Shown: positions 6,085 to 54,435 of the stretch, one piece after another
Layout: the number at the start of each line of letters is the position of its first letter
How positions within the stretch are numbered: position 1 is the first letter of the stretch
Source: Candidatus Nomurabacteria bacterium
GTDB lineage: Bacteria; Patescibacteriota; Minisyncoccia; Phycocordibacterales; UBA5272
Reading direction: 5' to 3'
NCBI GenBank assembly: GCA_003518045.1
Contig: DOZK01000020.1
Coordinates: 19,292-76,688, forward strand
DNA: 57,397 nucleotides
Notes under the pieces: generated by a model
Seen by the model: the letters and a program-made list of their open reading frames with translations, nothing else
Databases searched by the model: none
What the model was told of the DNA's origin: nothing
Translations under genes and position numbers: made by a program

Positions 6085-6684
6085 ATGTTTAGAAAAGTTA
6101 AATTACAAGATATTGCTGAGGTATATACAGGATATACCTTTCGTGAAGCCGTTTTGCCTGCATTAAATGGTAATATTTCTGTTTTACAGGCAAAAGATAT
6201 TATTCAAAATGAGTCTATTTTAAACACAAGTGGTCTTACCAAAGTTTCTCTCGAACTATCTCGCAGTAATTCATATGTTTTATATAATGACATTCTTTTA
6301 ATATCTCGCGCTAGAGGTCCTGGAAGTTTTCGGTCAACTATTTTTGAGAGTAAAGAAAAAAACGTAATAGCGTCCTCATCTATTTTTATAATACGCATTA
6401 CAGATAAAATTATTTTACCTAAATACATTTCAATATATTTAAACTCCTCAGATGGGCAGAATGATTTGGTACAATTATTATCAGGTTCATATATAAAAAC
6501 AGTGCCACGAAAAAATTTAGAAGAATTACAGATACCGATACCATCACTCCAAAAACAAAAAATATTTATAGAACTCAATGAAAATATTAAACAACAAGAA
6601 AAGATTTTAGAAAGGAAAAAAGAAATAAAACAAAACATTATTAACACAGCATTCACTAATTTAGTTAGAGAACAAAAGATATGA
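6085..6684 (+). CDS. half-size Type I restriction specificity subunit (single TRD)
   Basis: 199 aa. Starts VKLQDIAEVYTGYTF like an HsdS target-recognition domain and ends in a coiled conserved region (LQKQKIFIELNENIKQQEKILERKKEIK). Confidence 0.65.
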   Translation: MFRKVKLQDIAEVYTGYTFREAVLPALNGNISVLQAKDIIQNESILNTSGLTKVSLELSRSNSYVLYNDILLISRARGPGSFRSTIFESKEKNVIASSSIFIIRITDKIILPKYISIYLNSSDGQNDLVQLLSGSYIKTVPRKNLEELQIPIPSLQKQKIFIELNENIKQQEKILERKKEIKQNIINTAFTNLVREQKI

Positions 6685-7007
6685 AAACAAAAACAGAAAA
6701 CACAATAGCAGAATCGATGAAAGTGGAAATTGCTTTCCCTGAGTGTGTTCATATAGAGCTTGTTCGGGCAAATGATATAAGACATTATGAAATATTTTTG
6801 TGGTTAATTTCTTTGTCTATGTCTGTATCCTCTGGTTTTTGGGTATCTTTTGCCACAACACCTTTTAATAAAGTCTTACTCGCAGTTAGTCTTTCTTTTA
6901 CTTTGTTTACATTAGTTTTTGGAGCTGTAGCTTATTATTATCGTTTAAAGATAAAAGATACGAAACTAAAAAAGATTCTTATATTAGATAATTTTAACAA
7001 TAAATAA
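6681..7007 (+). CDS. small two-TM membrane protein (hypothetical)
   Basis: 108 aa. ATGA start/stop overlap with the preceding gene. Two hydrophobic helices. Confidence 0.4.
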   Translation: MKTKTENTIAESMKVEIAFPECVHIELVRANDIRHYEIFLWLISLSMSVSSGFWVSFATTPFNKVLLAVSLSFTLFTLVFGAVAYYYRLKIKDTKLKKILILDNFNNK

Positions 7008-7010
7008 ACC

Positions 7011-8519
7011 ATGACAAAAAAATACACACAAGAAGATCTGAACAAAATTCTCTGGGGGGCAGCAGATTCTTCTCGCATACAATTAAATGGGGCGGACTAT
7101 ATGAACTACGTATTGCCGATGCTTTTTTTTAAGTATCTCAGTGACAAATCAAAGCAGGAACACGAAGAATATAAAAAACGTTTTGGAAATGATGAGAAAC
7201 GTATTGAAGAAAAAATGAAGCTTAGTCGTTTCTATTTACCACTGAAATCCTCATTTGATTATATTTATTCTATTTTGGAGCAAGATAATTTAGGTGAAGA
7301 AATAAACAAAGCACTTCATCGTATAGAAGATACAAACAAAGAAAAATTAGAAGGTGTATTCAGTGTTGACTTCAACTCTGAATCAACTCTTGGGAAATTA
7401 AATGAGAGAAACAAAATGCTTCGCCACCTCGTGCAGGATTTCACCAAAATTGATTTGTCAGATGTGAGTGATGACATCATTGGTAACTCATATATGTATA
7501 TGATTGAACGCTTTGGAGCTGACGCTGGAAAAAAAGCGGGGGAATTTTTTACGGTAAGAAATGTTGCGAAGCTCGTAGCAAAATTAGCAGAACCAAAACC
7601 AGGAGCTCGTATATGCGACCCATGTTCAGGTTCCGGTGGCCTACTTTTGCTCGCTGGTGAAGAAGTAGAAAAGCAAAGTTCAAAAAATTATGCCCTCTAT
7701 GGACAAGAATCTACTGGTTCAACATATCAACTCGCTCGTATGAATATGTTCCTTCATGATAAAGATTCGGCCCGATTAGAATGGGGAGATACATTAAATA
7801 ATCCGCTTCTTGTAGAGAATGATCATTTAATGAAGTTTGACACTATCGTGAGTAACCCACCGTTCTCTCTTAAAAAATGGGGAGCCGAACAGGCAGAAGG
7901 AGATAAATATAATCGTTTTTGGCGTGGCATTCCACCAAAAGATAAAGGAGACTTTGCTTTTATTACACACATGGTAGAGACTGCAAAAGCAAAGACAGGG
8001 CGTATAGCTGTAATCGTTCCACATGGAGTTTTATTCCGAAGTGGAGCAGAAGGAAAAATTCGTGAGCAATTAATAAAAGAAAATATTATTGATGCAGTCA
8101 TTGGGCTCCCTTCAGGACTATTCCAGACAACTGGTATTCCTGTTGCTATTCTCATCATAGACCGCTCTCGTGAAAAAGGCGGAGAAAACGAAAGCAAGAA
8201 AGATATTTTCTTTGTTGAGGCGTCAAAAGAATTTAAGGCCAACAAAGCACAGAATATTCTTACAGAAGAAAATATTGATAAGATTTATTCTACATACAAG
8301 AATCGTAAGAATGTTGCAAAGTTTGCTCGTAAAGTTGATTTTAAGGAGTTGGAAGAAAATGATTTTAATCTCAATATCACTCGCTATGTAGATACTTTTG
8401 TAGAAGAAGAACCCGTTGATATTAAAGCAAACTTGAAAGAGCTTGCAGAACTTGAGCCAGAGCTTCAAAAGCTAGAAAAGCAAATGGTCGTATATTTAAA
8501 GGAATTAGGAATTAAATGA
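7011..8519 (+). CDS. hsdM: Type I R-M N6-adenine DNA methyltransferase subunit
   Basis: HsdM N-terminal domain (LWGAAD...Y...VLPMLFFKYLSD), SAM motif DPCSGSGGLL and catalytic NPPF (VSNPPFSLKKWG). Confidence 0.92.
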   Translation: MTKKYTQEDLNKILWGAADSSRIQLNGADYMNYVLPMLFFKYLSDKSKQEHEEYKKRFGNDEKRIEEKMKLSRFYLPLKSSFDYIYSILEQDNLGEEINKALHRIEDTNKEKLEGVFSVDFNSESTLGKLNERNKMLRHLVQDFTKIDLSDVSDDIIGNSYMYMIERFGADAGKKAGEFFTVRNVAKLVAKLAEPKPGARICDPCSGSGGLLLLAGEEVEKQSSKNYALYGQESTGSTYQLARMNMFLHDKDSARLEWGDTLNNPLLVENDHLMKFDTIVSNPPFSLKKWGAEQAEGDKYNRFWRGIPPKDKGDFAFITHMVETAKAKTGRIAVIVPHGVLFRSGAEGKIREQLIKENIIDAVIGLPSGLFQTTGIPVAILIIDRSREKGGENESKKDIFFVEASKEFKANKAQNILTEENIDKIYSTYKNRKNVAKFARKVDFKELEENDFNLNITRYVDTFVEEEPVDIKANLKELAELEPELQKLEKQMVVYLKELGIK

Positions 8520-8523
8520 CTAT

Positions 8524-9771
8524 ATGAAAAATGTATCTTTATTACTCATTAATAAAACAAAGAACAAGGAGTCATATAATTTATCTTTTGAAGGAAAAGA
8601 TACTGGATTTTTAGTGTTAGAGAAATTTAAAAATGGAAATATTACCAGGTATCCATTTTATAGCTTTGGTGGTGATATTAAAAAAAGATATGACTCAATC
8701 CTTAAGATCACAACAATTGGTGGTAAAAAACCATCTTCCGGTATATCAACAAACGTAACAGGGGGTTTTGGGTTCACAAAGCCAAAAGGTATACAGGATT
8801 TATTTTATTTTTTCCAAGAAAAATATCCGAAAATTAACGAGATTGTTTTTTCAGAAAAGGGAAAGATAGAAGTTAAAGAAAATAAATTAAATATCTTAAT
8901 ATCTGACTTTAAAAAAATCGAATTAAGAACAGAAAAGCATAAAGAAAAACAAGGCAAAGAAACGAGACAAGCATATCAAAATATATTCAACTCTATTTTG
9001 CCAACTAAATTTTTAGTTGCCCAAAAGATTAAGTATACAGAAAATGATTTGTCTAATTTTTTTAGGCAGTATGATATTGATCAAATGAAGTTATCTCTAG
9101 AAGATTCTGAAGTTATTAAAGGATTTATTGATAATAAAATTTTAAGCAAAGAGATTTTATTATCATCAAAAAGCCAAATCGATACCTTATATGTTGAAGA
9201 TATACTTATAAGATATAAAGATCTTATGAAGAAAAGTACAAAAGAGGAAGAGTGGCAAGTATTTTTTAATAAAAACAATTGGATATTTAGCAATGTATTC
9301 TTTTTCCCAGTTTCTTTTACAAAGGATAAGTTTAATGTTGGTGGGAATAATATAACTGAAACTAATAATGATAAAATTGTAGATTTTTTATATAAAAATA
9401 ATCTGACCAGCAATGTTGCTTTTATTGAAATAAAAACTCATAAAACTCCAATAGTGATGAAGACTGAGTATAGAAAGGGTGTATTTCCTATAACTAAGGA
9501 TTTATCAGGTTCAATAATTCAAGTCCAAGATCAAAAAAATGAATTATTGAAAAATTTCTACGCAAAATTAGGTGGTTCAGATCTTCAAATTTCTAACTCA
9601 AGATGTGTGGTCATTGTTGGAAATTTAACAAATTTAAATCAAAAACAAAAAGATAGTTTTGATTTGTTTAGAATGTCAAATAAAGAGGTAGAAATTATTA
9701 CGTTTGATGAATTACTAAATAAAATTGAGTATACATTGAATCTGTTCAAGAAAACTCCAAAAATAAAATAG
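8524..9771 (+). CDS. PD-(D/E)xK nuclease candidate, Shedu (DUF4263)-like, embedded in the R-M operon
   Basis: 415 aa. C-terminal block IVDFLYKN...VAFIEIKTHKTPI...IIQVQDQ...CVVIVGNL...EVEIITFDELL matches the D...E.K...Q...iiiG...v.i.TyDeLl layout I recall for DUF4263. No recognisable N-terminal domain. Confidence 0.45.
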   Translation: MKNVSLLLINKTKNKESYNLSFEGKDTGFLVLEKFKNGNITRYPFYSFGGDIKKRYDSILKITTIGGKKPSSGISTNVTGGFGFTKPKGIQDLFYFFQEKYPKINEIVFSEKGKIEVKENKLNILISDFKKIELRTEKHKEKQGKETRQAYQNIFNSILPTKFLVAQKIKYTENDLSNFFRQYDIDQMKLSLEDSEVIKGFIDNKILSKEILLSSKSQIDTLYVEDILIRYKDLMKKSTKEEEWQVFFNKNNWIFSNVFFFPVSFTKDKFNVGGNNITETNNDKIVDFLYKNNLTSNVAFIEIKTHKTPIVMKTEYRKGVFPITKDLSGSIIQVQDQKNELLKNFYAKLGGSDLQISNSRCVVIVGNLTNLNQKQKDSFDLFRMSNKEVEIITFDELLNKIEYTLNLFKKTPKIK

Positions 9772-9772
9772 T

Positions 9773-10882
9773 ATGAAAACTAATCAATTACAAAAAAATA
9801 TTCCTACTGGATGGCAACAATTAAAACTTGGTGATTGTTTGGTGATTAAGCATGGTAAACCTCAAAAAGAAATTGAAGTAGTTGGTGGTAAATATCCAAT
9901 TCTTGCAACTGGTGGAATCATCGGAAGAACCAATACGCCTTTATATTCAAAACCTTCTGTCTTAATTGGTAGAAAGGGCACTATTGATAAACCTAGATAT
10001 ATGGACACTCCGTTCTGGACAGTGGATACATTATTTTATAGTCATATAAAAGAAAATTCTATCGCAAAATATTTATTTTATAAATTTAATACCATTAAAT
10101 GGTATGACTACAACGAAGCTTCAGGCGTTCCAAGTTTGTCAGCATCAACTATTTCTAAAATAAAAATAAACTTACCACCCATCCTTGAACAGAATCGTAT
10201 AGTCTCAGTTATTGAAACATGGGACAAATCAATTGAAAAACTTATATTGAAAATTGAAATTAAGAAACAAATCAAAAAAGGTTTGATGCAGGATTTGCTG
10301 ACTGGTAAAAAACGATTGAGTGGTTTTAAAGATAAATGGGAAATTGTAAAATTAGGAGATTTAATAATTAAACAAGAAAAAACAAACAGGCAATCTGGGC
10401 ACTCCTTAGACACCGGCATGTATCCATTTTTTAATAATTCATCAAAAGGATTTGACCAATATCTTAATGAGTTTGATTTTGATGGTGAGATGTTAATTGC
10501 TAATACTGGTGGTGTCGCATATTTTGATTATTATTTTGGGAAATTTGCTGTGATGTCAGACTGCTTTGTTTTTACCTCAAAAGAAAATTGTAAATTTCTG
10601 TTTTATATTCTAAAAAGGTTAGAAGATTTAATTAATCATAAAGGTTTTACTGGTTCAGGTATCAAGCATCTTGATAAAAAATTCTTTTTTAAATTAAAAA
10701 TAGAACTCCCTTCCATTAAAGAACAAGTAGAAATTGCGGATATTATTACAATCGCAGATGGAGAAATAAAACAATTAGAAAAGAAACTATCTCTTATTAA
10801 AGATCAAAAACGATATCTCCTCAACAATCTCATAACTGGCACAATTCGTACCCCAGAAAATTTATTAGTAAAAGTTAAATAA
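9773..10882 (+). CDS. hsdS: Type I R-M specificity subunit (two TRDs)
   Basis: 369 aa. Two TRD halves, each followed by the conserved LPPILEQNRIV / LPSIKEQVEIA spacer helices. Confidence 0.85.
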   Translation: MKTNQLQKNIPTGWQQLKLGDCLVIKHGKPQKEIEVVGGKYPILATGGIIGRTNTPLYSKPSVLIGRKGTIDKPRYMDTPFWTVDTLFYSHIKENSIAKYLFYKFNTIKWYDYNEASGVPSLSASTISKIKINLPPILEQNRIVSVIETWDKSIEKLILKIEIKKQIKKGLMQDLLTGKKRLSGFKDKWEIVKLGDLIIKQEKTNRQSGHSLDTGMYPFFNNSSKGFDQYLNEFDFDGEMLIANTGGVAYFDYYFGKFAVMSDCFVFTSKENCKFLFYILKRLEDLINHKGFTGSGIKHLDKKFFFKLKIELPSIKEQVEIADIITIADGEIKQLEKKLSLIKDQKRYLLNNLITGTIRTPENLLVKVK

Positions 10883-18673: not shown

Positions 18674-19480
18674 ATGGAAAGGAAAACAAATATCATAGCA
18701 ACAATAGGTCCGGCCACTAATAAAAAAGAAATTCTTTTACAGATATTACCTTTGATTGATATGGTTAGGCTTAATTTTTCTTGGGGGACACATGAAGAAA
18801 TGTCAGAAATAATTTCTTTAGTGAGAGAAGTAAGTGAGAAGATTGGTAAAAAAATTCTTATCATACAAGATTTATCAGGGCCCCGTACTCAAGAAAAAGA
18901 TGGGCATCATTTTACAGATGGTGCTACAGAAGTCCTTACAGAAAAAGATTTAAATGATTTGGTTTTTGGAGTTTCAAAAAATGTGGATTATGTCGCAATG
19001 TCTTATGTTGGGAAAGTAGATGACATAAAAGACTTACGTAATCATATGACAATTTTGGGCGCAAATATTCCAGTAATTGCAAAAATAGAAAGAAAAATCG
19101 CTGTGGAAAATATTGAGACAATTATTGATGAGTCAGATGCAATAATGATTGCAAGAGGGGATTTAGGATTAGCATTTCCGATAGAAGAAATTCCATTCCT
19201 TGAAAGAAGAATACTTTCAGCCTGTAATAAGAAAAATAAATATGTAATAGTTGCAACTGAGATGTTGCTTTCTATGGTAAAAAAAGATAGACCAACAAGA
19301 GCAGAAGTTACAGATGTTGCTTTCGCCGTTACAGGTGGAGCAAGTGCGGTGATGTTATCTGAAGAAACAACAGAAGGGGATTATCCAGTTGAAACCGTGA
19401 AGATATTGGATAGAATAATTAGAAACGCAGAGGCCCATAAGGTTTTATTTTGGCTAGAGAGCAGTGAAGTAGAAAAGTAA
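18674..19480 (+). CDS. pyk: minimal pyruvate kinase (A-domain barrel only)
   Basis: 268 aa. KTNIIATIGPA, RLNFSWG, DLSGPR, LTEKDL.DL.FGV...VDYVAMSYV, IAKIE, MIARGDLG, ATEMLLSM, PTRAEVTDVA and MLSEETTEG are all present. The B-lid and C-terminal domains are absent. Confidence 0.7.
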   Translation: MERKTNIIATIGPATNKKEILLQILPLIDMVRLNFSWGTHEEMSEIISLVREVSEKIGKKILIIQDLSGPRTQEKDGHHFTDGATEVLTEKDLNDLVFGVSKNVDYVAMSYVGKVDDIKDLRNHMTILGANIPVIAKIERKIAVENIETIIDESDAIMIARGDLGLAFPIEEIPFLERRILSACNKKNKYVIVATEMLLSMVKKDRPTRAEVTDVAFAVTGGASAVMLSEETTEGDYPVETVKILDRIIRNAEAHKVLFWLESSEVEK

Positions 19481-24242: not shown

Positions 24243-24277
24243 CAGACACTGGATTCCAAATTAAATTTGGAATGACA
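24243..24277. repeat. partial TGTCA-family repeat (one and a half hairpins)
   Basis: cagaCACTGGA-[TTCCAAA ttaa ATTTGGAA]-TGACA. Confidence 0.6.
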
Positions 24278-24317
24278 TGAATACGAATTTGTATTACTAC
24301 GCACTACGCACTACTTA

Positions 24318-28934: not shown

Positions 28935-28993
28935 ACTAGTTAGGGGTTAGAAGTTAGGAGTTAGAAGTTTTTAAATTACAAAATTTGATTTTG

Positions 28994-29133
28994 TGTCATT
29001 CCAAACTTGATTTGGAATCCAGTGTCTTTAATTTAAGTAGGCAGTAACCAGTGGGCAGTAATCAGTAATACAAATACAGACACTGGACCCGCCTTGCCCG
29101 GCGAGGCAGGCCCTGATTTTCATCAGGATGACA
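28994..29133. repeat. TGTCA multi-hairpin repeat, long variant (copy 4)
   Basis: TGTCA-[TTCCAAA cttga TTTGGAA]-TCCAGTGTC...cagtaaccagtgggcag...CAGACACTGGA-[cccgccttgcccggcgaggcagg]-[CCCTGAT tttc ATCAGGA]-TGACA. Confidence 0.8.
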
Positions 29134-30029: not shown

Positions 30030-30187
30030 TTAGGGGTTAGAAGTTAGGGGTTAGAGGTAAATACAGATAACAGATTTCAGATTGACGAACGAAGGTGAGG
30101 AGACACTGAGCACAGTAGTGCGAAGTGTTAGAAGTTAGGGGTTAGGAGAGAATACAGAAACCAGAAGATAAATATCAGAAAATACAC

Positions 30188-30214: not shown

Positions 30215-30247
30215 GTCTTGTAAAATAAGGATTTTAAGTGATTTATA

Positions 30248-30276
30248 TTGACATTTAGCTAAAAACGTGCTATTCT
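30248..30276 (+). promoter_or_regulatory. sigma70-like promoter upstream of DGR target 1
   Basis: TTGACA, a 17-nt spacer, then TATTCT. Confidence 0.5.
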
Positions 30277-30309
30277 GTATTAGATAATCGCTCTTTTACA
30301 GTTTTAGAT

Positions 30310-30376
30310 GTTTACCATAGCTTCAAGCCTTAATTCTTATTAGGTTTTTGAAAAAAAGTTTGAAGCTATGGTAAAC
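30310..30376 (+). promoter_or_regulatory. 5'-leader hairpin (17-bp perfect stem, 33-nt loop)
   Basis: gtttaccatagcttcaa ... ttgaagctatggtaaac, located between the predicted promoter and the ATG at 30438. Confidence 0.6.
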
Positions 30377-30437
30377 CGATGTTTCGGAACCCGCCAGCAA
30401 GCTACCCGTAAGGAGTAGCGCTCAATGGAGAAATTAC

Positions 30438-31082
30438 ATGAGCACAAAATCAACTGCCACGTTCCCACAAGCCGCGCATCTATTGACCTTGTTTGGTCAG
30501 AAAGATGTTAGCAAGGAACAGTTTGGTCAACTCGTTGACCTTGGACTGCTTTCTGACTTGCTTGATTCCGACCCGACGAAGGTCGACCGCGACAAGTTTC
30601 GGGATGTGCTTGGTCTCAAAATCACAGTGACACCTGTTGCTGAATTGGTGAGTTCAATCATCACCGTTGACCGTTCTGTTTGCCCATCGTACCCCGATTG
30701 GGTGACAAAGGTTATTTACCCGCAATTTGTGGGTATGGGCCCAGTGGGTTACGATGTAACCACACTCAAGCAGTGGCTACATGACGATCAGAAATCTGGT
30801 GTCGTGGCTGGCAACCTGATTCATGAATACCTGAAGAGCAACAAAATGCTTGAAGGGTGTCTCGGTCTTCGTGACCTGGAAGAAATACAGAAGAAGGGTA
30901 TCGCCTTTTTCCGGAAATATTTCCAGGGCAAGGCCGTCTTCGGATGGAAGTCTGTCGTACGGGACTCGAATGGCGACCTGCGTGTGCCGTGTCTGGTCGA
31001 GGACGGTGGTGAGGTTCTTCTGAACTGGCGCTGGCTTGTCTTTGACTGGTTCTCCAATAACCCCGCGCTTCGTTTCGTTTGA
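30438..31082 (+). CDS. DGR target protein 1 (variable C-terminus)
   Basis: 214 aa and visibly GC-rich. The C-terminal 41 aa (VVRDSNGDLRVPCLVEDGGEVLLNWRWLVFDWFSNNPALRFV) are encoded by VR1. The terminal ..RF.-type ending resembles CLec-fold DGR targets. Confidence 0.8.
   Translation: MSTKSTATFPQAAHLLTLFGQKDVSKEQFGQLVDLGLLSDLLDSDPTKVDRDKFRDVLGLKITVTPVAELVSSIITVDRSVCPSYPDWVTKVIYPQFVGMGPVGYDVTTLKQWLHDDQKSGVVAGNLIHEYLKSNKMLEGCLGLRDLEEIQKKGIAFFRKYFQGKAVFGWKSVVRDSNGDLRVPCLVEDGGEVLLNWRWLVFDWFSNNPALRFV
30955..31077 (+). repeat. DGR variable repeat VR1
   Basis: Gap-free 123-nt alignment to 31400-31522 with 17 mismatches, all opposite adenines of the TR copy. Confidence 0.85.
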
Positions 31083-31132
31083 ACTTCGGGCTTGGTCACT
31101 TTGTTTTTTAGACACTTTGACCTTAACCCTTT

Positions 31133-31170
31133 GTCCCGCACCTAGTGATAGTGTGCGGGACTTTTGTTTT
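31133..31170 (+). terminator. hairpin/terminator just 3' of VR1
   Basis: GTCCCGCAC-ctagtgatagt-GTGCGGGAC followed by ttttgtttt. Confidence 0.65.
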
Positions 31171-31177
31171 GTATACT

Positions 31178-31573
31178 AAAACCGAGAGTAGATAATGAAT
31201 GCATGATTATGGTTATGCATCATCGAAATCAGTATCCATATGTCCAGAATATTTAAGATTATAGTTTTAAATAGCGTGGCGTATGTAGACACTTCAAAAA
31301 TGAAGTTACTTGGTATGGTGTGCTAGACATTGTTATGTCAAATAAAATTCAGCCCTGAGATTTTTCAAGGGGTGGTGATATAGATGGCATATTATATAAT
31401 CGTACGGAACTCGAATGGCAACCTGAATGTGCCGTATCTGATCGAGAACGATGGTAAGGTTATTCTGAACTGGAACTGGCTTGACAATGACTGGAACTCC
31501 AATAACCCCGCGCTTCGTTTCGCAACTTATTTCATTTCTAAATGCCAACATTTTATGTTGGCATTTAGTTTTT
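31178..31573 (+). ncRNA. putative stand-alone DGR template RNA 1 (leader + TR1 + terminator)
   Basis: TATACT box at 31172-31177. A 51-nt leader (31184-31234) is 43/51 identical to 49820-49870. TR1 follows, then the terminator CTAAATGCCAACA-tttta-TGTTGGCATTTAG plus a T-run (31538-31573). Confidence 0.5.
31400..31522 (+). repeat. DGR template repeat TR1
   Basis: Asn-codon-rich (AAC/AAT) in the VR frame (RNSNGNLNVPYLIENDGKVILNWNWLDNDWNSNNPALRF). It is the adenine-bearing partner of VR1. Confidence 0.85.
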
Positions 31574-31760
31574 CTTTTCTGCTTGTTGTTTTGTTAATTG
31601 CCCATTCCATCCACCTAGCATTTTACCTATTTCGTTTGTTTTCTCAGAAAGAGAAATATATTTTTTGGTATCGAGTGATTTTGTTTCAAATAAAATTAGT
31701 ATAAGAATATTAAACGTATCTAGCTTTCGAATCGCTATACGAACAAAGGTAATAAAGATA
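31565..31760 (-). pseudogene. truncated avd (accessory variability determinant) remnant
   Basis: The minus-strand frame reads ...RIAIRKLDTFNILILILFETKSLDTKKYISLSEKTNEIGKMLGGWNGQLTKQQAEKKN*. This aligns to the C-terminal half of the Avd at 50330-50725. There is no N-terminal half and no start codon. Confidence 0.7.
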
Positions 31761-31837
31761 ATGAAAAATCCGCTGTGTTTGAAGCAGCGGTTTTTTGTTT
31801 TCAGCTTAGACTTAGTCGAAGTCCAGAGGCTCTCATG

Positions 31838-32242
31838 TCATACTTTGCCCGCAATGAATTGCTTAACCAGTAGAGGAATTTCTTCCAAAGTTTCATACCT
31901 GGCGAAGGTGTAGCATGGTTCGTTGATTCCAAGCACTAACCGTGTTACAAGGGCATTTGTTTGAGCAAGTGCGAGTGTTGGTTTGCCGTTTTTTTCAACA
32001 GCAGTACTCAACTCGTATCCAAGTCCGGTCGACGGGTGGTCCACAAGGGCGATAAAGACATCACACTTTGCAACACAGTTGTGTATGTCCCAAACATAGA
32101 CATCTTCGGCCGTCCCGGCAACTAACCCAAGGAAGTCGAACACGAAATGTCCGTCCTCCCTGAGAGCTATTTTTAGGATATCCACAGCCCGCTTAAATTC
32201 CTCTGAAGCATGCGTCAGTGCGCAGCCAACATAGATCTTCAT
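31838..32242 (-). CDS. nucleoside 2-deoxyribosyltransferase-like protein
   Basis: 134 aa and GC-rich. MKIYVGCAL...CDVFIALVDHPSTGLGYELSTAVEKNGKPTLAL fits the iYlAGp...cD.vva.ld....d.Gt..E.G.A...gKP pattern. Confidence 0.5.
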   Translation of the reverse strand: MKIYVGCALTHASEEFKRAVDILKIALREDGHFVFDFLGLVAGTAEDVYVWDIHNCVAKCDVFIALVDHPSTGLGYELSTAVEKNGKPTLALAQTNALVTRLVLGINEPCYTFARYETLEEIPLLVKQFIAGKV

Positions 32243-38485: not shown

Positions 38486-38548
38486 TGTCATCCTGATGAA
38501 AATCAGGATCCAGTGTCCACTGGATTCCAAATCAAGTTTGGAATGACA
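38486..38548. repeat. TGTCA multi-hairpin repeat, archetypal 63-nt three-hairpin unit (copy 5)
   Basis: TGTCA-[TCCTGAT gaaa ATCAGGA]-[TCCAGTG tc CACTGGA]-[TTCCAAA tcaag TTTGGAA]-TGACA. Three 7-bp hairpins are closed by a 5-bp stem. Confidence 0.85.
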
Positions 38549-38580
38549 CAAACACAAGTTTCCTGATTTAAAAAATATTT

Positions 38581-43883: not shown

Positions 43884-46800
43884 ATGAACGAAAACAACAA
43901 ACAAAAAACAATATCAGAAAAAGAGCAAGAGATTTTAAATTTCTGGCAGGAAAATAAAATCTTTGAAAAATCAATTGAAACTCCAGCTGGTGAAAAAGCC
44001 AAAGGAGATTTCTCTTTTTATGATGGCCCACCATTTGCAACAGGGCTACCACACTTTGGCCATATTCTTGCGGGAACAATAAAAGATGCAATTCCTCGTT
44101 ATCAAACGATGAATGGTAAAAGTGTTCGTCGTAAATGGGGATGGGACTGCCACGGTCTTCCAATTGAAAATTTGATTGAGAAAAAATTAGGACTAAAAAG
44201 TAAAAAAGATATTGAAGATTTTGGTGTTGGAAAATTTAATAAAGATGCGAATGACAGTGTTCTTCAATATGAAGAAGAGTGGAAAAAAGTAATGCCAAGA
44301 TTAGGCAGATGGGCAGATATGGAACATCCATATAAAACAATGGACGCGACTTATACAGAAAGTATTTGGTGGTCATGGAAAACTTTATATGAAAAAGGTC
44401 TTGCTTATGAGGGGAATAAAATGATGCATATTTGTCCACGTTGTGAGACGCCACTTGCTCAATCAGAAGTTGGTCTTGAATATCATGATGTTACGGATTT
44501 ATCTGTAACAGCAAAGTTTGAACTAGTAGATGAGCCGGGGACTTTTGTTTTAGCGTGGACTACAACGCCGTGGACATTACCAGGAAATGTAGCTCTTGCT
44601 CTCAGTAAAGACGCCGAGTATGTAAAAGTCTTATCAAAAGAAGAGGGGAGTACAGAGCAAGAAGTAAGTAAATACATTGTTGCAAAAAGTCGACTAGAGG
44701 AGGTTTTTAAGGGTAAGGAATATGAAATAGTTGAAGAATTTAAAGGAGAGAAATTAGTTGGCAAATCATATAAACCACTATTCCCATATTTTGAAGATAA
44801 AGAAATTGAGAATAAAGAAAATATTTGGAAAATTTGGCATGCGGATTTTATTACTCTTGATACCGGTACTGGTATTGCTCATGAAGCACCAGCATTCGGT
44901 GCGGAAGATATGGAACTTGCAAAGGCAAATAATATTCCTGTAATTAAGCATGTAAAAATGGATGGAACTTTTACAGCGGACGTTACAGATTTTGCTGGAA
45001 TGAAAGTAAAAGTAAAAGATGATACTCAATCGGCTGACATTGAAATAATAAAATGGCTAGCACACAATGGAGAACTTTTTGAAAAGCATAAAATAATTCA
45101 CTCATACCCACTTTGTTGGAGATGTAAAACCCCGTTACTTAACTATGCGACATCAAGTTGGTTTGTTGATGTTCCAAAAATGAAAGATAGATTAATTGAA
45201 GAAAATAAAAAAATTATTTGGGTGCCAGAGCATATTCGAGATGGGCGATTTGGAAAATGGCTAGAGGGTGCGCGTGAATGGGCGGTCTCACGTACTCGTT
45301 ATTGGGGTGCGCCACTTCCAGTTTGGAAAAATGAAGATGGGGAGATGATTATAATTGGCTCTTTAAAAGAATTAGCTGAGAAAAATAAACAACAACCAAA
45401 AAATATTTATTATGTAATGCGTCATGGAGAAGCCGAAAGTAATGTAGCAGGGATAATTGACTCAGATGGAAGTGAAACTAATAATCTTACAGAAAAAGGA
45501 ATAGCACAGGCAAAACTAAGCGCAGAAAATCTTAAAGATAAAAATATTGATGTGATTTTTACTTCGCCATTTTTAAGAACAAAGAAAACAGCAAAAATAG
45601 TTTCAGATATTTTAGGTGGTGTTGAAATTATTGAAGATATGCGTCTTAAGGAAGTCAATGTAGGTATTTATGACAAAAGAAAAGTGTCTGACTATTTGAA
45701 AGAAGTTGGAAAATTAAAATATCTTACACTGGATAATCGTGTTAAAGGAGGGGAAACACACAGAGAGGTTATGAATCGTATGGTGCAGGTGTTTATGGAA
45801 ATGGAAGAAAAATATGAAGGGAAAAATATTTTATTTGTTACCCACGGTGGGCCAGCCAGGATGTTTGTAGCTGGTGCGCATAATCTTACAGAAGAAGAAT
45901 TACTTATTGATGAAGCAACTGATGAAGCAAAACTTTATCCAAAAAACGCAGAAGTTGTAAAAGTCTCGCCATTAATAATTCCTCGTGATGAAACTGGGGC
46001 TGTTAATCTTCATCGTCCTTATATTGATAACACTGAACTATTAGTTGATGGGAAAACATATAAACGTATTCCGGATGTATTTGATTGTTGGTATGAATCA
46101 GGTTCAATGCCATTTGCTCAACTTCACTATCCGTTTGAAAATAAAGAAATTTTTGCAAAAAATTATCCGGCAGATTTTATTGCCGAAGGTTTAGACCAAA
46201 CACGCGGATGGTTTTATTCACTTATCAATTTAGGTGTAGGATTATTTGATAAAGCTCCGTATAAACATGTGGCAGTGAATGGACTTATTATGGCAGAGAC
46301 GGGTATGAAGTTATCAAAGAGTGAGAAAAATTATACAGACCCAATGGAGCTTGTAGAAAAGTATGGGGCGGACTCTATGCGTTACGCACTGTTATCTAGT
46401 CCAGTTGTAAAAGGGGAGAATTTACTTTTTGGTGATGATATTGTTTCTGATATTTATAAAAAGTTAGTTTCTCGATTATTAAACGTGCTTTCATTATATG
46501 AAATGAATAAGCCTGAAAATGTTATTGCAAAAAATACATCAAGTGATGTATTAGATAGATGGATGATTTCTAGGGTGCATGAATTATTGCGTGATGCGAC
46601 AAAAGGATATGACTCATATAAATTAGATGAAGCGACTCGTGGGACAGGAGATTTAATCGATGATATTTCTGTTTGGTATACAAGAAGATCACGCGAAAGA
46701 TTAAAGGGTGATATGGGTGAGGAAAGTCAAATGCGTGCTTACGTTACTTTGACTTATGTATTACAAACATTAGCAAAAACTATGGCACCAGTTATGCCAT

Positions 46801-47345
46801 TCACTGCTGAAATTGTTTATAAAGCTTTAAATGGTGAAAGAGAGTCTGTCCATCTTGAAAGTTGGCCAACAGTTGGAGTTATTGAAGATGAAGTTATAAA
46901 AGAAATGAAAAATGTAAGAGATATAGTTACGGTTGCTCTTTCACTTCGAACACAATCTAAAATCGCAGTTCGTCAGCCACTTCAAAAAATTACTCTGAAA
47001 GATGAGATAAAAAGCGAGTATCACCAAATAATTTTGGACGAACTTAATGTTAAAGAAATCGCATTTGCTAATTCTTTAACTGAGGTCTGCGTATTAGATA
47101 CAGAAATTACTGAAGAATTAAAATTAGAAGGGGACGTGAGAAATCTTATGCGTGCCGTACAAGATGCTCGTAAAGAAAAAGGATTAACTCCGCAAGATTC
47201 TATTATTCTTTTGACAGATTATTCTGTGCCAGAAAAGTTTAAAGAAGTATTAATGAATACTTGTAAAATTAGTGAAATAAAAGGAGGAAGCGGAAAATAC
47301 AAAGCTGAGACCGGAGTAGGGGAGGTGTCGTTTGATATAAATTAA
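43884..47345 (+). CDS. ileS: isoleucine--tRNA ligase (type 2-like) with an inserted histidine-phosphatase domain
   Basis: HIGH (PHFGHILAG), WDCHGLP, an editing domain, WAVSRTRYWGAPLPVW, and KMSKS (MKLSKSEKN). About 195 extra aa with RHG/PGAM motifs sit between IIIGSLKEL and NLHRPYID. Confidence 0.93.
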   Translation: MNENNKQKTISEKEQEILNFWQENKIFEKSIETPAGEKAKGDFSFYDGPPFATGLPHFGHILAGTIKDAIPRYQTMNGKSVRRKWGWDCHGLPIENLIEKKLGLKSKKDIEDFGVGKFNKDANDSVLQYEEEWKKVMPRLGRWADMEHPYKTMDATYTESIWWSWKTLYEKGLAYEGNKMMHICPRCETPLAQSEVGLEYHDVTDLSVTAKFELVDEPGTFVLAWTTTPWTLPGNVALALSKDAEYVKVLSKEEGSTEQEVSKYIVAKSRLEEVFKGKEYEIVEEFKGEKLVGKSYKPLFPYFEDKEIENKENIWKIWHADFITLDTGTGIAHEAPAFGAEDMELAKANNIPVIKHVKMDGTFTADVTDFAGMKVKVKDDTQSADIEIIKWLAHNGELFEKHKIIHSYPLCWRCKTPLLNYATSSWFVDVPKMKDRLIEENKKIIWVPEHIRDGRFGKWLEGAREWAVSRTRYWGAPLPVWKNEDGEMIIIGSLKELAEKNKQQPKNIYYVMRHGEAESNVAGIIDSDGSETNNLTEKGIAQAKLSAENLKDKNIDVIFTSPFLRTKKTAKIVSDILGGVEIIEDMRLKEVNVGIYDKRKVSDYLKEVGKLKYLTLDNRVKGGETHREVMNRMVQVFMEMEEKYEGKNILFVTHGGPARMFVAGAHNLTEEELLIDEATDEAKLYPKNAEVVKVSPLIIPRDETGAVNLHRPYIDNTELLVDGKTYKRIPDVFDCWYESGSMPFAQLHYPFENKEIFAKNYPADFIAEGLDQTRGWFYSLINLGVGLFDKAPYKHVAVNGLIMAETGMKLSKSEKNYTDPMELVEKYGADSMRYALLSSPVVKGENLLFGDDIVSDIYKKLVSRLLNVLSLYEMNKPENVIAKNTSSDVLDRWMISRVHELLRDATKGYDSYKLDEATRGTGDLIDDISVWYTRRSRERLKGDMGEESQMRAYVTLTYVLQTLAKTMAPVMPFTAEIVYKALNGERESVHLESWPTVGVIEDEVIKEMKNVRDIVTVALSLRTQSKIAVRQPLQKITLKDEIKSEYHQIILDELNVKEIAFANSLTEVCVLDTEITEELKLEGDVRNLMRAVQDARKEKGLTPQDSIILLTDYSVPEKFKEVLMNTCKISEIKGGSGKYKAETGVGEVSFDIN

Positions 47346-47397
47346 TTATTCTTCAGTTTTTCACTGGACCAATTCTTAATTACAAAACTCCAACGCA

Positions 47398-47498
47398 TGT
47401 CATTCCAAACTTGATTTGGAATCCAGTGTCCACTGAAATTATAAGGCACTGGACCCGCCTTGCCGGCGAGGCAGGTCCTGATTTTCATCAGGATGACA
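47398..47498. repeat. TGTCA multi-hairpin repeat, four-hairpin variant (copy 6)
   Basis: TGTCA-[TTCCAAA cttga TTTGGAA]-[TCCAGTG ...18 nt... CACTGGA]-[cccGCCTTG ccgg CGAGGCagg]-[TCCTGAT tttc ATCAGGA]-TGACA. Confidence 0.85.
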
Positions 47499-47574: not shown

Positions 47575-47820
47575 ATGAGTAAAATAACATTAAAAAATAA
47601 CAGAGAATATACTGCTTTTTTTGAGGAAAATGAACTCGGAGGATATACAATTACTGTGCCTGCACTTCCTGGGCTTGTTACAGAAGCAAAAGATATGAAG
47701 CAAGCAAAGGTTGTGTTACAAGATGCCATTACTTGTTATATTGAGGGGCTAAAGAAATCAAAAGTAGAAATACCAAAAGAAAGTTTTGTTGCAAGTATGC
47801 GTTTGCAGTTTGCTGTGTAA
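47575..47820 (+). CDS. hicB: HicB-family antitoxin
   Basis: 81 aa. YTAFFEENELGGYTITVPALPGLVTEAKDMKQA...DAI..YIEGL is the UPF0150/HicB N-domain pattern. Confidence 0.75.
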   Translation: MSKITLKNNREYTAFFEENELGGYTITVPALPGLVTEAKDMKQAKVVLQDAITCYIEGLKKSKVEIPKESFVASMRLQFAV

Positions 47821-47825
47821 TTCGT

Positions 47826-48044
47826 ATGCCAAAACTTCCAATTCTTACACCAAAAAAGTTAGTAAAAATTTTGTGTAAAATTGGTTTTTATATTCATCAT
47901 CAAACAGGGAGCCACATTAACTTACGCCATAGTATTAAAAATAATTTACATGTGGTTATTCCTTATCATACGAGAGATTTAGCTCCAAAAACTCTCAAGT
48001 CAATTATTATGCAAGCAGATATTTCCATAGATGATTTATTATAA
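47826..48044 (+). CDS. hicA: HicA-family mRNA interferase toxin
   Basis: 72 aa. LTPKKLVKIL.K.GF...HQTGSHINLRH...VVIPYHTRDLAPKTLKSII. Confidence 0.8.
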   Translation: MPKLPILTPKKLVKILCKIGFYIHHQTGSHINLRHSIKNNLHVVIPYHTRDLAPKTLKSIIMQADISIDDLL

Positions 48045-48054
48045 TTAAAAAACC

Positions 48055-49737
48055 ATGCCACCAAAAAAATTTGAAGGAAAGTTTGGAATACCACAATCTA
48101 ATTCTATTGACTCAGAGCTTACCTCCGCACTCTATAGACTTCCAGACTCAATAAGTCTGCCTTTTATAGAAAGCATGACAGAAGATATCGTTAGTAAAGT
48201 AAATAAAAGATTAGAAGAAATGTATGAGGAATCTTTATTAGGAAATGATAAAGGTATTGCAAATGTGAGAATTAGACGTGCTCTTTCTGATGAACAAAGA
48301 AAAATACTTCAACTCAAACTTACAAGGCACTTTGAAGACAATGGTGAATCTGCAAAAATAGACGTACCAGTATGTGTTGATGCACTCATAGAGTCACCAA
48401 GATTTTTAGAGAGTATGAAAGGAAGTATGGACAAACTTTTTGCAATGCATGAAATGAAGATATTACAAAAGATTGCCGAATTAAGACGTAAACGAGCAGA
48501 GATGAGTGGAGATGAATCTTTGTATAATCCTTATGAAAATCTTTTTGAAACAAGCAGTGGCAAATATTGTATGGCAAGACTTTTGAATATGCCTCATTTA
48601 GAAGAAGAGTCTGAATATATGGATCATTGTGTTGGAACAAGTACAAGCTATGTTAACAAAATCAAGAAAGGTGAGGTCGAGATACTTTCTTTTCGAGACA
48701 CATCAACTAATAATCCAATCGCTACTATTGAGTATGATCTTAAGAGTAAAAGATTACTACAGATAAAATTAATGAGTGATAAGTTGCCAAAGTTAAGCGA
48801 CTCATTTTCTGCTGATTTATTAGAAGCAATAGAAAAATTGGAGACGACAACAAATGATCTAGGTGTTCCTAGAGTTATTGAGGGTAGTCTAGCTAAGGAC
48901 ATGAAGACACTCCTATCTTTACAAGAGAAATCCAAAAAACAAGAAGTATATACAAGAGATGACCTTTTATTTCTATATGAAATTAGTTCACCTATCCAAT
49001 GTTTTGATAGTGGAAGAGATCCACTTATTGATGAGTTATTGCGAAAAAGAAACCGCCAAGAAGACATACAACTCCTTTGTAATTGTGAGTCACAGTTTAT
49101 TGCATTTGACTTCATTGATATCAATGAACAAACTCAAGTTTTCTGTGAAGACACAGGGAAGAAAATCACTTTTGTTGATTTTCGTCTAGAAGCAAACCAA
49201 AAGAAACTCCCGCAACTTCTCGAACTCGCACAGCACATCAAAGAAAGTGGTAGTCCCGCGAGACCGGATATGTCATTTGAAGGTGGAATAGTAACTATAG
49301 ATATATCAGAAGAAAAATTAAAAGATACAAAGACAGTCTTACAATCATACAAAGAAGCAGACAGTAGCTCTCCATCATGGGTATGGGATGAATGGATAAA
49401 CGCACCCTATACTAAACCAAAATTACCACTAGAAACTATTATTTTGTCATATAACAAAGATACAAACACAAGAGAATCATCAGATAAAATTGTATCAGAT
49501 ATGAATAGATTAGGATTAAGACCTGCAACATTAGAAGAACTTATTGCTCTTGGAGTAATAAAACCAGAATTTAATAAACGAAGTGGCTCTTACCTTGTTG
49601 AACTAACAAAATATTCTTTGGATGGTGGTTCCTACGTTCCCTGCGTGGACTGGGGTGGCGACGAGCGTGACTTGGTCGGGTATGAGTGGGGGAGTAGGTG
49701 GATTGACAGGAATCGTTTTGTTTGCGTTCGCAAATAG
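48055..49737 (+). CDS. DGR target protein 2 (variable C-terminus)
   Basis: 560 aa. The last ~40 aa (SLDGGSYVPCVDWGGDERDLVGYEWGSRWIDRNRFVCVRK) are encoded by VR2, and the ..RFVCVRK ending is typical of CLec-fold DGR targets. A central MDHCVGTSTSYVNKIKKGEVEILSFRD block is reminiscent of PcfJ-like domains (weak call). Confidence 0.8.
   Translation: MPPKKFEGKFGIPQSNSIDSELTSALYRLPDSISLPFIESMTEDIVSKVNKRLEEMYEESLLGNDKGIANVRIRRALSDEQRKILQLKLTRHFEDNGESAKIDVPVCVDALIESPRFLESMKGSMDKLFAMHEMKILQKIAELRRKRAEMSGDESLYNPYENLFETSSGKYCMARLLNMPHLEEESEYMDHCVGTSTSYVNKIKKGEVEILSFRDTSTNNPIATIEYDLKSKRLLQIKLMSDKLPKLSDSFSADLLEAIEKLETTTNDLGVPRVIEGSLAKDMKTLLSLQEKSKKQEVYTRDDLLFLYEISSPIQCFDSGRDPLIDELLRKRNRQEDIQLLCNCESQFIAFDFIDINEQTQVFCEDTGKKITFVDFRLEANQKKLPQLLELAQHIKESGSPARPDMSFEGGIVTIDISEEKLKDTKTVLQSYKEADSSSPSWVWDEWINAPYTKPKLPLETIILSYNKDTNTRESSDKIVSDMNRLGLRPATLEELIALGVIKPEFNKRSGSYLVELTKYSLDGGSYVPCVDWGGDERDLVGYEWGSRWIDRNRFVCVRK
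49615..49733 (+). repeat. DGR variable repeat VR2
   Basis: Gap-free 119-nt alignment to 50038-50156 with 15 mismatches: 14 opposite TR adenines and one opposite a TR thymine (TR position 50068). Confidence 0.85.
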
Positions 49738-49813: not shown

Positions 49814-50235
49814 GAACATGAGAGTAGATAATGAGTGTATGGATATTTTTATACAACATCGAAATCAGTAGGGTATAGATGAGAATTCAAGTACAAGAAT
49901 AATGTATAGGAAGAGTATCTATATTTGTTTCAAAAAAGAAATCTACTTGGCGTAGTTATGTTAAGTATTATTATACTAGCTTAAATTCAACATATGGTTG
50001 CGACTGTGTGTGGTGGTATGCATGCATAACTACGAAATCTTTGGATGGTGATTCCTACGTTCCCTACTTGAACTGGAATGGCGACAAGCGTAACTTGAAC
50101 AGGAATGAGTGGAGGAATAGGTGGAATGACAGGAATCGTTTTGTTTGCGTTCGCAATTTAATTTCTTTACATAACACGACCTCCGAGTCCAAGACATGAG
50201 TCTGCTGACTCAGGAGGTCGTGTTATGTTTTTTTG
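49814..50235 (+). ncRNA. putative stand-alone DGR template RNA 2 (leader + TR2 + terminator)
   Basis: TATACT box at 49807-49812, then the conserved 51-nt leader at 49820-49870 and TR2. A long hairpin follows, ACATAACACGACCTCC(gagtc)...(gactc)aGGAGGTCGTGTTATGT plus a T7 run (50169-50235). Confidence 0.5.
50038..50156 (+). repeat. DGR template repeat TR2
   Basis: The adenine-rich partner of VR2. In the VR frame it reads SLDGDSYVPYLNWNGDKRNLNRNEWRNRWNDRNRFVCVR, with many AAY Asn codons. Confidence 0.85.
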
Positions 50236-50245
50236 TATGAATTTG

Positions 50246-50319
50246 TGTCATTCCCGCGAAGGCGGGAATCCAGTGTCCAAATGAGTATGGGCCTGGATTC
50301 CCGCCTTCGTGGGAATGAG
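50246..50319. repeat. TGTCA multi-hairpin repeat (copy 7, partly degenerate)
   Basis: TGTCA-[TTCCCGC gaag GCGGGAA]-[TCCAG ...19 nt... CTGGA]-[TTCCC gccttcgt GGGAA]-TGAG. Confidence 0.7.
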
Positions 50320-50329
50320 TTACGAAAAA

Positions 50330-50725
50330 CTAATTAAGCTGTTTTACAACTTGATTATGCCAACCACCGAGCATCTTACCTATTTCGTGTAACTTTTCGC
50401 TGAGTGCTATATATTGTTTTGTTTCAAAGGCTTTTATAGTATGTGCCACACGAAGCATTACTTTTGCAGTATCGAGTAGTTGTATCGCTTTCTGAATATA
50501 TTGTAGCTTCTGTTCTTTCTTCACAAAAAGTGCCGATGAAGTATATTGGATAACTTCACATAGGAGAGTATCTATTTTTACACCGAGCGAGTATCTATGA
50601 ACTTTTGGAAAGTGTATGATGTAGGAATGCCAAAGTACATAAGCAACTTCGAGTTTGAGGATAAGAGGAGGAGTACTGATTTCGTGGGGGGGGGGGCGAT
50701 ATTCATAGCAAAAAGTGTAACACAC
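50330..50725 (-). CDS. avd: DGR accessory variability determinant (Avd, four-helix-bundle family)
   Basis: 131 aa. FPKVHRYSLGVKIDTLLCEVIQ...LDTAKVMLRVAH...LSEKLHEIGKMLGGW fits Avd / 23S-IVS-type four-helix-bundle proteins. It is divergent from the RT. The only ATG start places a C11 tract (RPPPH) inside the 5' end. Confidence 0.75.
   Translation of the reverse strand: MCYTFCYEYRPPPHEISTPPLILKLEVAYVLWHSYIIHFPKVHRYSLGVKIDTLLCEVIQYTSSALFVKKEQKLQYIQKAIQLLDTAKVMLRVAHTIKAFETKQYIALSEKLHEIGKMLGGWHNQVVKQLN
50686..50696. repeat. G11/C11 homopolymer tract
   Basis: Eleven consecutive G on the plus strand. The tract lies within avd codons 10-13 and 62 nt upstream of the annotated RT start. Confidence 0.95.
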
Positions 50726-50757
50726 AGTATGATGATATTGTTACTTTTGAAAAGCTA

Positions 50758-51579
50758 TTGGAATCATGGAATGATTTTGTGAGTGGGAAAAGAAAGAGAG
50801 AAGATGTGAATACATTTGCATTACGGCTGTCTGATAATTTGATTGACCTTTTTTATGAACTAAAAAGCGATGTGTACATTCATGGAAATTACGAAGAGTA
50901 TGTTATTTGCGACCCGAAGAAGCGTATCATTCATAAAGCAAGTGTGAGAGATAGAGTAGTGCATCGACTACTCTATAATGCTTTGTATAGCTATTTCGAT
51001 AGACGATACATCTATGACTCATATAGTTGTCGAATTGGAAAAGGAACACATAAAGCACAAGCTAGATTTAGATATTTTGTAAATGCTGTAAGTAAAAATT
51101 ATACGAAACCATGTTATGTTCTCAAGTTTGATATTAAGAAATGTTTTGAAAGTATTGATGCTGACATTCTTAAAAATATACTTTTCACACATATACAAGA
51201 TGAGCGATTAAAAAGTCTTGTCTTTAAAATTATTGATAGTTTTCCGAAAGGATTGCCACTAGGAAATTTAACTTCACAGTTATTCATTAACATCTATCTT
51301 CATGAATTAGATTGGTATGTAAAGCAGACACTTCATTGCACGCATTATTTTAGATATGCGGATGATATGGTTGTTATTTCTCATGATAAAAAAGAATTAG
51401 AAAATTTCTACAAGCAATTACAAATTTTCTTGAAACAGGAACTTCATCTGACAACACATAAAAAAGTAATTAGTAGTATCTACTCAGGAATTGATATTCT
51501 CGGGTTAGTTTTCTTTGCAAAGTATCAGAGATTGCGAAGGAGTACAGAGAGGAGAAAGAATGCGAGAGGTGGTAAATAA
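50758..51579 (+). CDS. DGR-type reverse transcriptase
   Basis: RT motifs: KKRIIHKASVRDRVVHRLL, FDIKKCFESID, the DGR-diagnostic LPLGNLTSQLFINIYL ([LIV]GxxxSQ), and YADDMVVIS. The annotated start is TTG, and homology (YDDIVTFEKLL) continues upstream to the stop at 50677 without an ATG. Confidence 0.85.
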   Translation: MESWNDFVSGKRKREDVNTFALRLSDNLIDLFYELKSDVYIHGNYEEYVICDPKKRIIHKASVRDRVVHRLLYNALYSYFDRRYIYDSYSCRIGKGTHKAQARFRYFVNAVSKNYTKPCYVLKFDIKKCFESIDADILKNILFTHIQDERLKSLVFKIIDSFPKGLPLGNLTSQLFINIYLHELDWYVKQTLHCTHYFRYADDMVVISHDKKELENFYKQLQIFLKQELHLTTHKKVISSIYSGIDILGLVFFAKYQRLRRSTERRKNARGGK

Positions 51580-54232: not shown

Positions 54233-54279
54233 AAATAAGTCTGTAAAGTCCATAAAGTTGAAAGCAAAATTCGCAATTG

Positions 54280-54346
54280 TGTCATTCCCGCGAAGGCGGG
54301 AATCCAGTGTCCAGAACCTGGATTCCAAATCAAGTTTGGAATGACA
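54280..54346. repeat. TGTCA multi-hairpin repeat (copy 8)
   Basis: TGTCA-[TTCCCGC gaag GCGGGAA]-[TCCAG gtgtccagaac CTGGA]-[TTCCAAA tcaag TTTGGAA]-TGACA. Confidence 0.85.
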
Positions 54347-54435
54347 CAGGTTCCATTGGTTGGTTTAATTGAACTTTGTAAACTTTTAACTTTATGGACT
54401 TTCAACTAACCTAATTTTTATGTTAGGATAGTTGT

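Follow-up and report, generated by a model that had tools for sequence, protein, structure and literature searches.

In the diversity-generating retroelement (DGR) of BPP-1, which is ordered mtd-VR, avd, TR, Sp and brt (VR and TR being the variable and template repeats), the complex of reverse transcriptase (RT) and Avd requires a duplex between RNA segments upstream and downstream of the TR together with a stem-loop that binds Avd (10.1101/2023.10.23.563531). According to work cited in a survey of DGRs, the avd-TR-brt part of this system functions in trans from a plasmid (cited in PMC5758913). Remote targets that are not adjacent to the RT are well known, for example in Treponema and Legionella (surveyed in PMC5758913). 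Incomplete DGR loci and their possible use in trans have been discussed for Thiohalocapsa PB-PSB1 (PMC10907252), and a cassette lacking an RT has been noted in Nanoarchaeota (PMC4372165). Here we describe a DGR cassette without an RT (cassette 1) in a stretch of 57,397 nt (hereafter the window; positions 19,292–76,688 of contig DOZK01000020.1, assembly GCA_003518045.1) from a metagenome-assembled genome (MAG) of Candidatus Nomurabacteria recovered from groundwater. Cassette 1 carries a complete template-RNA gene of its own, the first leader domain of which is of the type used by a second, resident DGR in the same window (cassette 2). We propose, with a probability of roughly 0.45, that cassette 1 is served in trans by the RT and Avd of cassette 2 (RT2–Avd2), encoded 19 kb away.

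Cassette 1 resembles the BPP-1 DGR in its adenine-specific TR/VR pair and in the position of the VR at the 3′ end of the target gene. VR1 (30955–31077, + strand) aligns without gaps over 123 nt with TR1 (31400–31522, +), and all 17 mismatches (17/17) are located at adenines of TR1, with nine changes from A to G, five from A to T and three from A to C, while none of the non-adenine positions of TR1 differs in VR1 (0/91). As TR1 contains 32 A in 123 nt, the probability that 17 random mismatches would all fall at A is 1.9e-12. The alignment and its adenine bias had been reported in a preliminary description of the window and are reproduced here, as is the placement of VR1 at the 3′ end of the target gene T1 (30438–31082, +), of which it forms the last 41 codons. 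The codons of TR1 are of the usual DGR kind, with 11 AAY codons and one stop-capable AAG. T1 encodes a protein of 214 residues (HCC06198.1), one of a large family of DGR variable proteins in Parcubacteria; it has no match in Pfam or NCBIfam and no sequence match to solved structures. A Foldseek search of the PDB with its AlphaFold2 model (pLDDT 83.8) returned no match with an E value below 0.5, the top weak matches being C-type-lectin-like (1ukm_B, 8oks_B and 3wbr). Upstream of T1 is a promoter-like site defined by consensus match only (TTGACA-17-TATTCT with TG; 30248–30276, +), and the 5′ untranslated region contains a perfect 17-bp inverted repeat (GTTTACCATAGCTTCAA / TTGAAGCTATGGTAAAC; 30310–30376) that may be a regulatory hairpin. 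A hairpin followed by a T-run (31135–31159, +), which lies within a stretch downstream of the VR that is conserved in the family, is the predicted terminator of T1.

TR1 is distinct from TR2 of cassette 2 (50037–50156): VR1 matches TR1 only, and TR2 matches VR2 only, which upholds the view in the preliminary description that the two templates are separate and have separate targets. In particular, VR1 does not match TR2 in the test used for remote targets, in which a VR matches the RT-adjacent TR at all non-adenine positions, and neither a third leader or TR nor any remote VR was found in the window. The locus is thus like the known remote targets in that the variable gene is far from the RT and is presumed to be diversified in trans, but remote targets share the TR adjacent to the RT, whereas cassette 1 has its own TR, promoter, leader and terminator. 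With the Thiohalocapsa and Nanoarchaeota loci it shares a TR/VR pair with a disrupted or missing RT, the presence of other DGRs in the genome and a possible use in trans; however, the trans cases in Thiohalocapsa are VRs that match the TR of another locus, and its loci with a disrupted RT were explained by intact structural variants (PMC10907252). The searchable literature yielded no natural example of a single RT that serves two distinct TR-RNA genes.

The RNA gene of cassette 1 was compared with those of related DGRs, and 55 T1-family loci were taken from reference MAGs; the leader alignment comprised 26 cassettes, for which a consensus structure was derived with RNAalifold, and the elements flanking the TR were compared over 26 to 28 related cassettes. 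In the 26 aligned cassettes, the interval between VR and TR contains a −10-like box followed by a conserved leader of about 215–230 nt that reaches the TR. In cassette 1 this box is TATACT (31172–31177, +), located 6 nt before the start of the leader, and it probably belongs to the promoter of the TR RNA, a similar box being present at about the same distance in other cassettes. The leader itself consists of domains P0/P1 (31184–31234, +; GAGAGTAGAT-AATG ... CATCGAAATCAGTA), which are of the variant found in the RT2 clade, and domains P2–P5 (31235–31399, +), which are of the T1-family type. The consensus structure contains 55 pairs, of which 41 show compensatory changes; 96.2% of the alignment cells concerned are paired, compared with 37–47% in controls with slid partners, and none of 500 shuffles attains values as high. 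The cassette 1 leader forms all 55 of the 55 consensus pairs, the best of the set, with only 15 G–C pairs, compared with 23–33 in the other T1-type cassettes except the AT-rich L039 (16). Its GC content is 0.33, against 0.42–0.55 elsewhere, and a reading of this low value as a sign of decay was rejected, since every consensus pair is kept. The drift of the leader towards AT has therefore been compensated, and the RNA structure has been under selection in the lineage of cassette 1.

A long-range duplex between the leader (AAATGAAG) and the post-TR tail (CTTCATTT) brackets the TR. In cassette 1 its 5′ strand is AAATGAAGT (31298–31306, within P2–P5) and its 3′ strand is ATTTCATTT (31529–31537), the latter being part of the tail CAACTTATTTCATTT (31523–31537, +). 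The pairing is supported by covariation across cassettes, with AACGAAG/CTTCG in L017 and L044, AAATGAAAAT/ATTTTCATTT in L039 and AAAGAAAT/ATTTCTTT in cassette 2 and its relatives. The tail is followed by a 14-bp stem-loop and a T-run (31538–31568, +), which would serve as the terminator of the TR1 RNA and, from its position, as a candidate Avd-binding stem-loop of the kind described for BPP-1 (10.1101/2023.10.23.563531). Both systems thus have a stem-loop just 3′ of the TR and an upstream/downstream duplex, that of the post-TR tail being analogous to the cPRT Stop duplex (10.1101/2023.10.23.563531), and by this analogy the stem-loop and duplex flanking the TR are probably the elements required by RT–Avd. 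Cassette 1 retains the −10 box, the leader, the TR, both strands of the duplex and the stem-loop/terminator, which is every RNA element of its intact relatives. It differs from BPP-1 in that it lacks an RT and a functional Avd, in that the structured RNA (∼215 nt) lies mostly 5′ of the TR rather than 3′ of it in an Sp region, and in that avd is on the opposite strand in the intact T1 relatives. In all cassettes the leader segment AAATGAAG (31290–31306 region in cassette 1) can also pair locally with CTTCA to form a small hairpin; this pairing and that with the post-TR CTTCATTT (31529–31537) are mutually exclusive, so the RNA may switch conformation.

Rfam includes structured RNAs near RT genes as RT-n motifs, among which RT-10 is the Sp region of BPP-1 and RT-16 is RF03019 (PMC5737381). 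The RT-16 model matches residues 31292–31404 of the leader over its full length, and the blocks AUAAAAU-CA-GCC...GGC-GGUGA are present, but the score of 25.6 bits (E value 0.1–0.19) is below the threshold of 50 bits. Rfam gives no match, to RT-16 or otherwise, in cassette 2 or L006, and no family in Rfam 15 covers the full leader. Breakpoints of independent assemblies are found at the margins of cassette 1. Two Logan contigs both stop at 31216, which lies within the P1 hairpin; further contigs terminate at 31657 and 31675, or begin at 30046 and 30059. These breaks may be due to population heterogeneity or structural variants.

The most interesting element of cassette 1, which is absent from the preliminary description, is the mosaic structure of its leader. 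In P0/P1, cassette 1 is closest to cassette 2, with 43 of 53 positions identical (81%); the next best comparator reaches 36/53 and T1-type cassettes are at most 68% identical. In P2–P5 it is T1-type, and of 25 comparators none is further from it than cassette 2; the return to T1 type occurs directly after ...CAGTA. The states at alignment columns 2, 3, 9, 61 and 67 are common to cassettes 1 and 2 and are missing from 23 or 24 of the 24 others, and the column pairs 2–67 and 9–61 are A–U in cassettes 1 and 2 and G–C in all 24 others, that is, the changes are compensatory. The T1-type consensus of this region is GGTAGTAGGCGAAT...CCGAATCCAGTA. Two relatives of RT2 from other metagenomes (L067 and L068, RTs 73–74% identical) have leaders that begin with the same GAGAGTAGATAATG...CATCGAAATCAGTAG as cassette 2. 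Since independent RT2 relatives carry the P0/P1 variant, it is likely to be ancestral to the RT2 clade and to have been acquired by cassette 1. Two other origins were considered and rejected. AT bias is opposed by the changes at column 3 (T to G) and column 15 (to G), and is further ruled out by the AT-rich T1-type cassettes L039 and L047, which keep the T1-type motif. Host lineage does not explain the variant either, as L067 carries homologs of T2, Avd2 and RT2 in a different gene context, and the variant thus tracks cassette type. No template RNA with a domain matched to a heterologous RT was found in the searchable literature.

Cassette 2 consists of the target gene T2 (48055–49737, +), which has a PcfJ-like N-terminal part and contains VR2 at 49614–49733, an RNA leader of the RT2-clade type (49820–50036, +), TR2 (+), avd2 (50330–50725, −; bAvd/DivGenRetAVD family) and RT2 (50701–51579, +), which is of the DGR type with LGNLTSQ and YADD motifs. 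RT2 is the only RT found in a scan of all six frames of the window and ∼9.5 kb beyond its left edge with a profile of 19 related DGR RTs. Cassette 2 also serves as a control for variation in VR1, since VR2 has three alleles in public assemblies: the 90% cluster of T2 contains three proteins of 560 residues that differ in VR2 only. A contig from sample ERZ909576 differs from the window at five positions over 19,343 bp, all of which lie in VR2 at TR2 adenines. RT2–Avd2 is therefore functional, and cassette 2 is active in nature. A run of 11 G (50686–50696), located between avd2 and the divergently oriented RT2, has 12 G in another assembly, as deduced from the reading frame of P0128; gene calls vary among assemblies, from 64 to 152 residues for Avd and from 266 to 327 for RT. 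The tract could provide phase-variable control of the DGR enzymes or could be homopolymer sequencing noise. A HicB/HicA toxin–antitoxin pair (47575–48044) is located directly upstream of T2.

T1 has more than 200 homologs in Parcubacteria, and the intact layout in this family, as seen on long contigs, is target-VR, a structured leader RNA of ∼215 nt, TR, stem-loop, avd (−) and RT (+). Cassette 1 is homologous to such complete cassettes over its whole length, and since the intact relatives have avd and RT directly after the TR, it has lost both. The absence of an RT, as given in the preliminary description, is borne out by the profile, the nearest and only match of which in the scanned DNA is 19 kb away at 50680–51576. 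The same account had recognized a C-terminal avd fragment, and tblastn indeed places residues 54–113 of an intact family Avd on 31750–31571(−). This remnant (31571–31753, −) comprises helices 3–4 only and is of the T1-family type, being 54–68% identical to T1-type Avds and 46% identical to Avd2, the lowest value of 23. Its frame is open over 72 codons and has no ATG, GTG or TTG start. Of an accessory protein of the Avd or HRDC kind, cassette 1 thus keeps only this equivalent of residues 54–113 of Avd. The junction where the 5′ half of avd and the RT are missing is marked by the hairpin terminator (31770–31790) of a GC-rich neighbouring gene (31838–32242, −). The PF05635 family (23S rRNA intervening-sequence protein) shares the four-helix-bundle fold of Avd, and a gene for a stand-alone member of 120 residues lies ∼9 kb to the left of the window (L115, 9783–10145). 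Tested as a relocated Avd, this protein showed no BLAST similarity to Avd2, to a T1-type Avd or to the stub.

Cassettes lacking an RT recur in the family. The 55 loci include about 20 complete cassettes, about 25 solo targets without TR, avd or RT, and five RT-less cassettes with a TR. One of the latter, L021, has an avd stub only, with 13/13 mismatches at A; the same contig also carries a complete DGR, L056, at a distance of 13 kb, and the TR of L021 is clearly different from that of L056, so that the pair is a second instance of the layout in the window. L023 and L047 have neither avd nor RT, with 12/12 and 14/14 mismatches at A and intact leaders, and L060 is RT-less with five mismatches, four of them at A. 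In L007 (11451–11858), with 15/15 mismatches at A, the RT is truncated; avd is kept and the RT is reduced to its C-terminal third. In L068 (3577–4651), a truncated cassette of the RT2 type, the target, leader and TR are kept, and avd and the N-terminus of the RT are gone. It seems common in these genomes for the enzyme genes to be lost earlier than the RNA gene. The T1-family targets (L006–L063) have a GC content of 0.48–0.60 and a third-position GC content (GC3) of 0.56–0.80 even in hosts with 32–40% GC, the sole exception being L039, a pattern suggestive of a cassette that is often transferred horizontally, or of selection acting on base composition.

We propose that the ancestor of cassette 1 was a complete T1-type DGR, with target-VR, leader-TR RNA gene, opposite-strand avd and RT, and that a deletion took the RT and the 5′ half of avd and left a self-contained TR1 RNA gene. 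The TR1 RNA would be transcribed from its own promoter and bound by the RT–Avd complex of cassette 2, which could use it because its first leader domain has the variant of the resident RT's own RNA. Reverse transcription with misincorporation at adenines would then give cDNA that replaces VR1, and homing into VR1 would have continued after the deletion, at a current rate that appears to be below that of VR2. Service in trans is made plausible by an RNA gene that is complete and has been under selection, by a first domain of the RT2 type, by the activity of RT2 and by the repeated occurrence of RT-less cassettes no less clean than the complete ones.

Several observations weigh against this proposal. 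A single VR1 allele is shared by 12 contigs, which come from at least five samples, the 90% cluster of T1 being one sequence, and cassette 1 DNA is 100% identical in all five of the contigs fetched (5/5), that from ERZ909576 included; in this sample, where both loci are present, VR2 has changed and VR1 has not. Ongoing diversification of VR1 is thus not seen in the consensus of public assemblies, although comparison of consensus sequences from a few related samples has low power. One VR1 allele against three VR2 alleles argues for a VR1 rate that is lower than the VR2 rate, not zero. The preliminary description had named invariance of VR1 across populations, together with non-A substitutions between VR1 and TR1 in related genomes, as a finding that would refute its proposal of a single RT–Avd serving two templates in trans; of this, the invariance of VR1 is seen in all public assemblies, and the proposal gains from the complete RNA elements and the RT2-type P0/P1 and loses from a constant VR1 beside a varying VR2. 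A metagenome scan with TR1 in which every A was a wildcard gave no matches in a collection that lacks the contig, the known locus also being unmatched. In addition, 10 of the 53 positions of the P0/P1 patch, most of them in the stem and loop of P1, do not agree with cassette 2; the patch has not been freshly copied from the resident leader. The RT2-type match is confined to P0/P1, the remaining leader not being RT2-type.

The strongest alternative, which we regard as quite possible if short of even odds, is that cassette 1 is a relic that was orphaned recently. Homing into VR1 would have stopped when RT and avd were deleted; the leader, still intact, the avd stub, still open, and the A-only pattern would all be fossils of this loss, and the cassette would be turning into a frozen solo target, with the P0/P1 patch either older than the loss or a functionless product of recombination. 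The constancy of VR1 fits this account directly. The avd stub is stop-free and no more diverged than intact Avds are from each other; it is possible, therefore, that the deletion happened recently and that the clean A-only pattern is left over from before it. For this reason the inference of recent activity from the lack of non-adenine drift, drawn in the preliminary description, is weaker than it seemed, although the lack of drift itself stands. The family also forms a decay series, from complete through RT-less to solo loci, with L007 and L068 in the course of decay, and RT-less cassettes may be a short-lived stage of loss; the persistence of solo T1 genes implies that the protein needs no ongoing diversification. 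The seven derived RT2-clade states in P0/P1 are unexpected for a neutral relic: two of them form compensatory pairs, and some run counter to the AT bias of the genome. Moreover, the identity between T1-type and RT2-type leaders is too low for ordinary homologous gene conversion, and the RT-less cassettes of four other genomes are as undecayed as complete ones, with 53–55 of the 55 pairs and A-only mismatches.

It is improbable that cassette 1 is served instead by a second, cognate T1-type RT–Avd elsewhere in the genome. The RT scan covered ∼67 kb of a 77-kb contig of one MAG, so that the description of RT2 as the only RT holds for the window and ∼9.5 kb of its left flank and was too broad as a statement about the genome. 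Several T1-type loci can occur in one genome (L021, L056 and L064 in one MAG, L011 and L041 in another), and L056, the complete DGR near L021, is of the same type as L021. However, no such RT was found in the window or its left flank, and a cognate enzyme would give the first leader domain no reason to be of the RT2-clade variant. That the repeat arose by chance or by ordinary duplication, a notion for which the missing adjacent RT is the sole argument, is refuted by the all-adenine mismatches (P ∼2e-12) and by the homology to complete DGR cassettes over the whole length.

If RT-less cassettes such as cassette 1 are served in trans, the number of diversified genes in the streamlined genomes of the Candidate Phyla Radiation (CPR) has been underestimated, and small genomes obtain several hypervariable proteins for the cost of one enzyme. 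Surveys of DGRs are anchored on the RT and assign one TR to each, and RT-less TR/VR cassettes are then missed, discarded or scored as remnants. A broader idea, which we consider rather unlikely, is that DGR template RNAs are modular: P0/P1 would be a putative adapter that chooses the RT–Avd, an orphan TR-RNA gene could be rescued by way of the adapter of a resident DGR, and RT-less satellites would be maintained parts of a dispersed system with one enzyme and several templates and targets, not debris. The mosaic leader points to a specific candidate for the RNA determinant of RT–Avd specificity, which is relevant to how mutagenesis is confined to chosen genes and to the engineering of multiplexed DGR mutagenesis. 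Whatever the outcome for trans service, the strongly covarying leader 5′ of the TR is a useful comparative counterpart to the BPP-1 RNA.

Other features of the window include a defence island at 6085–10882 (L114 annotation), which comprises a type I restriction–modification system (HsdM and two HsdS) with an SduA_C (Shedu-like) gene in between and an adjoining RadC. An isoleucyl-tRNA synthetase-like protein of 1153 residues (43884–47345) has a histidine-phosphatase domain (His_Phos_1) inserted at residues 510–673. Intergenic palindromic repeats of ∼45 nt (GTCATTCC...GGAATCCAGTGTC and complement) are present at 1240–1286, 24247–24290, 28969–29026, 38518–38561, 47373–47430, 50231–50277 and 54265–54359, and one copy sits between the TR2 stem-loop and the end of avd2.

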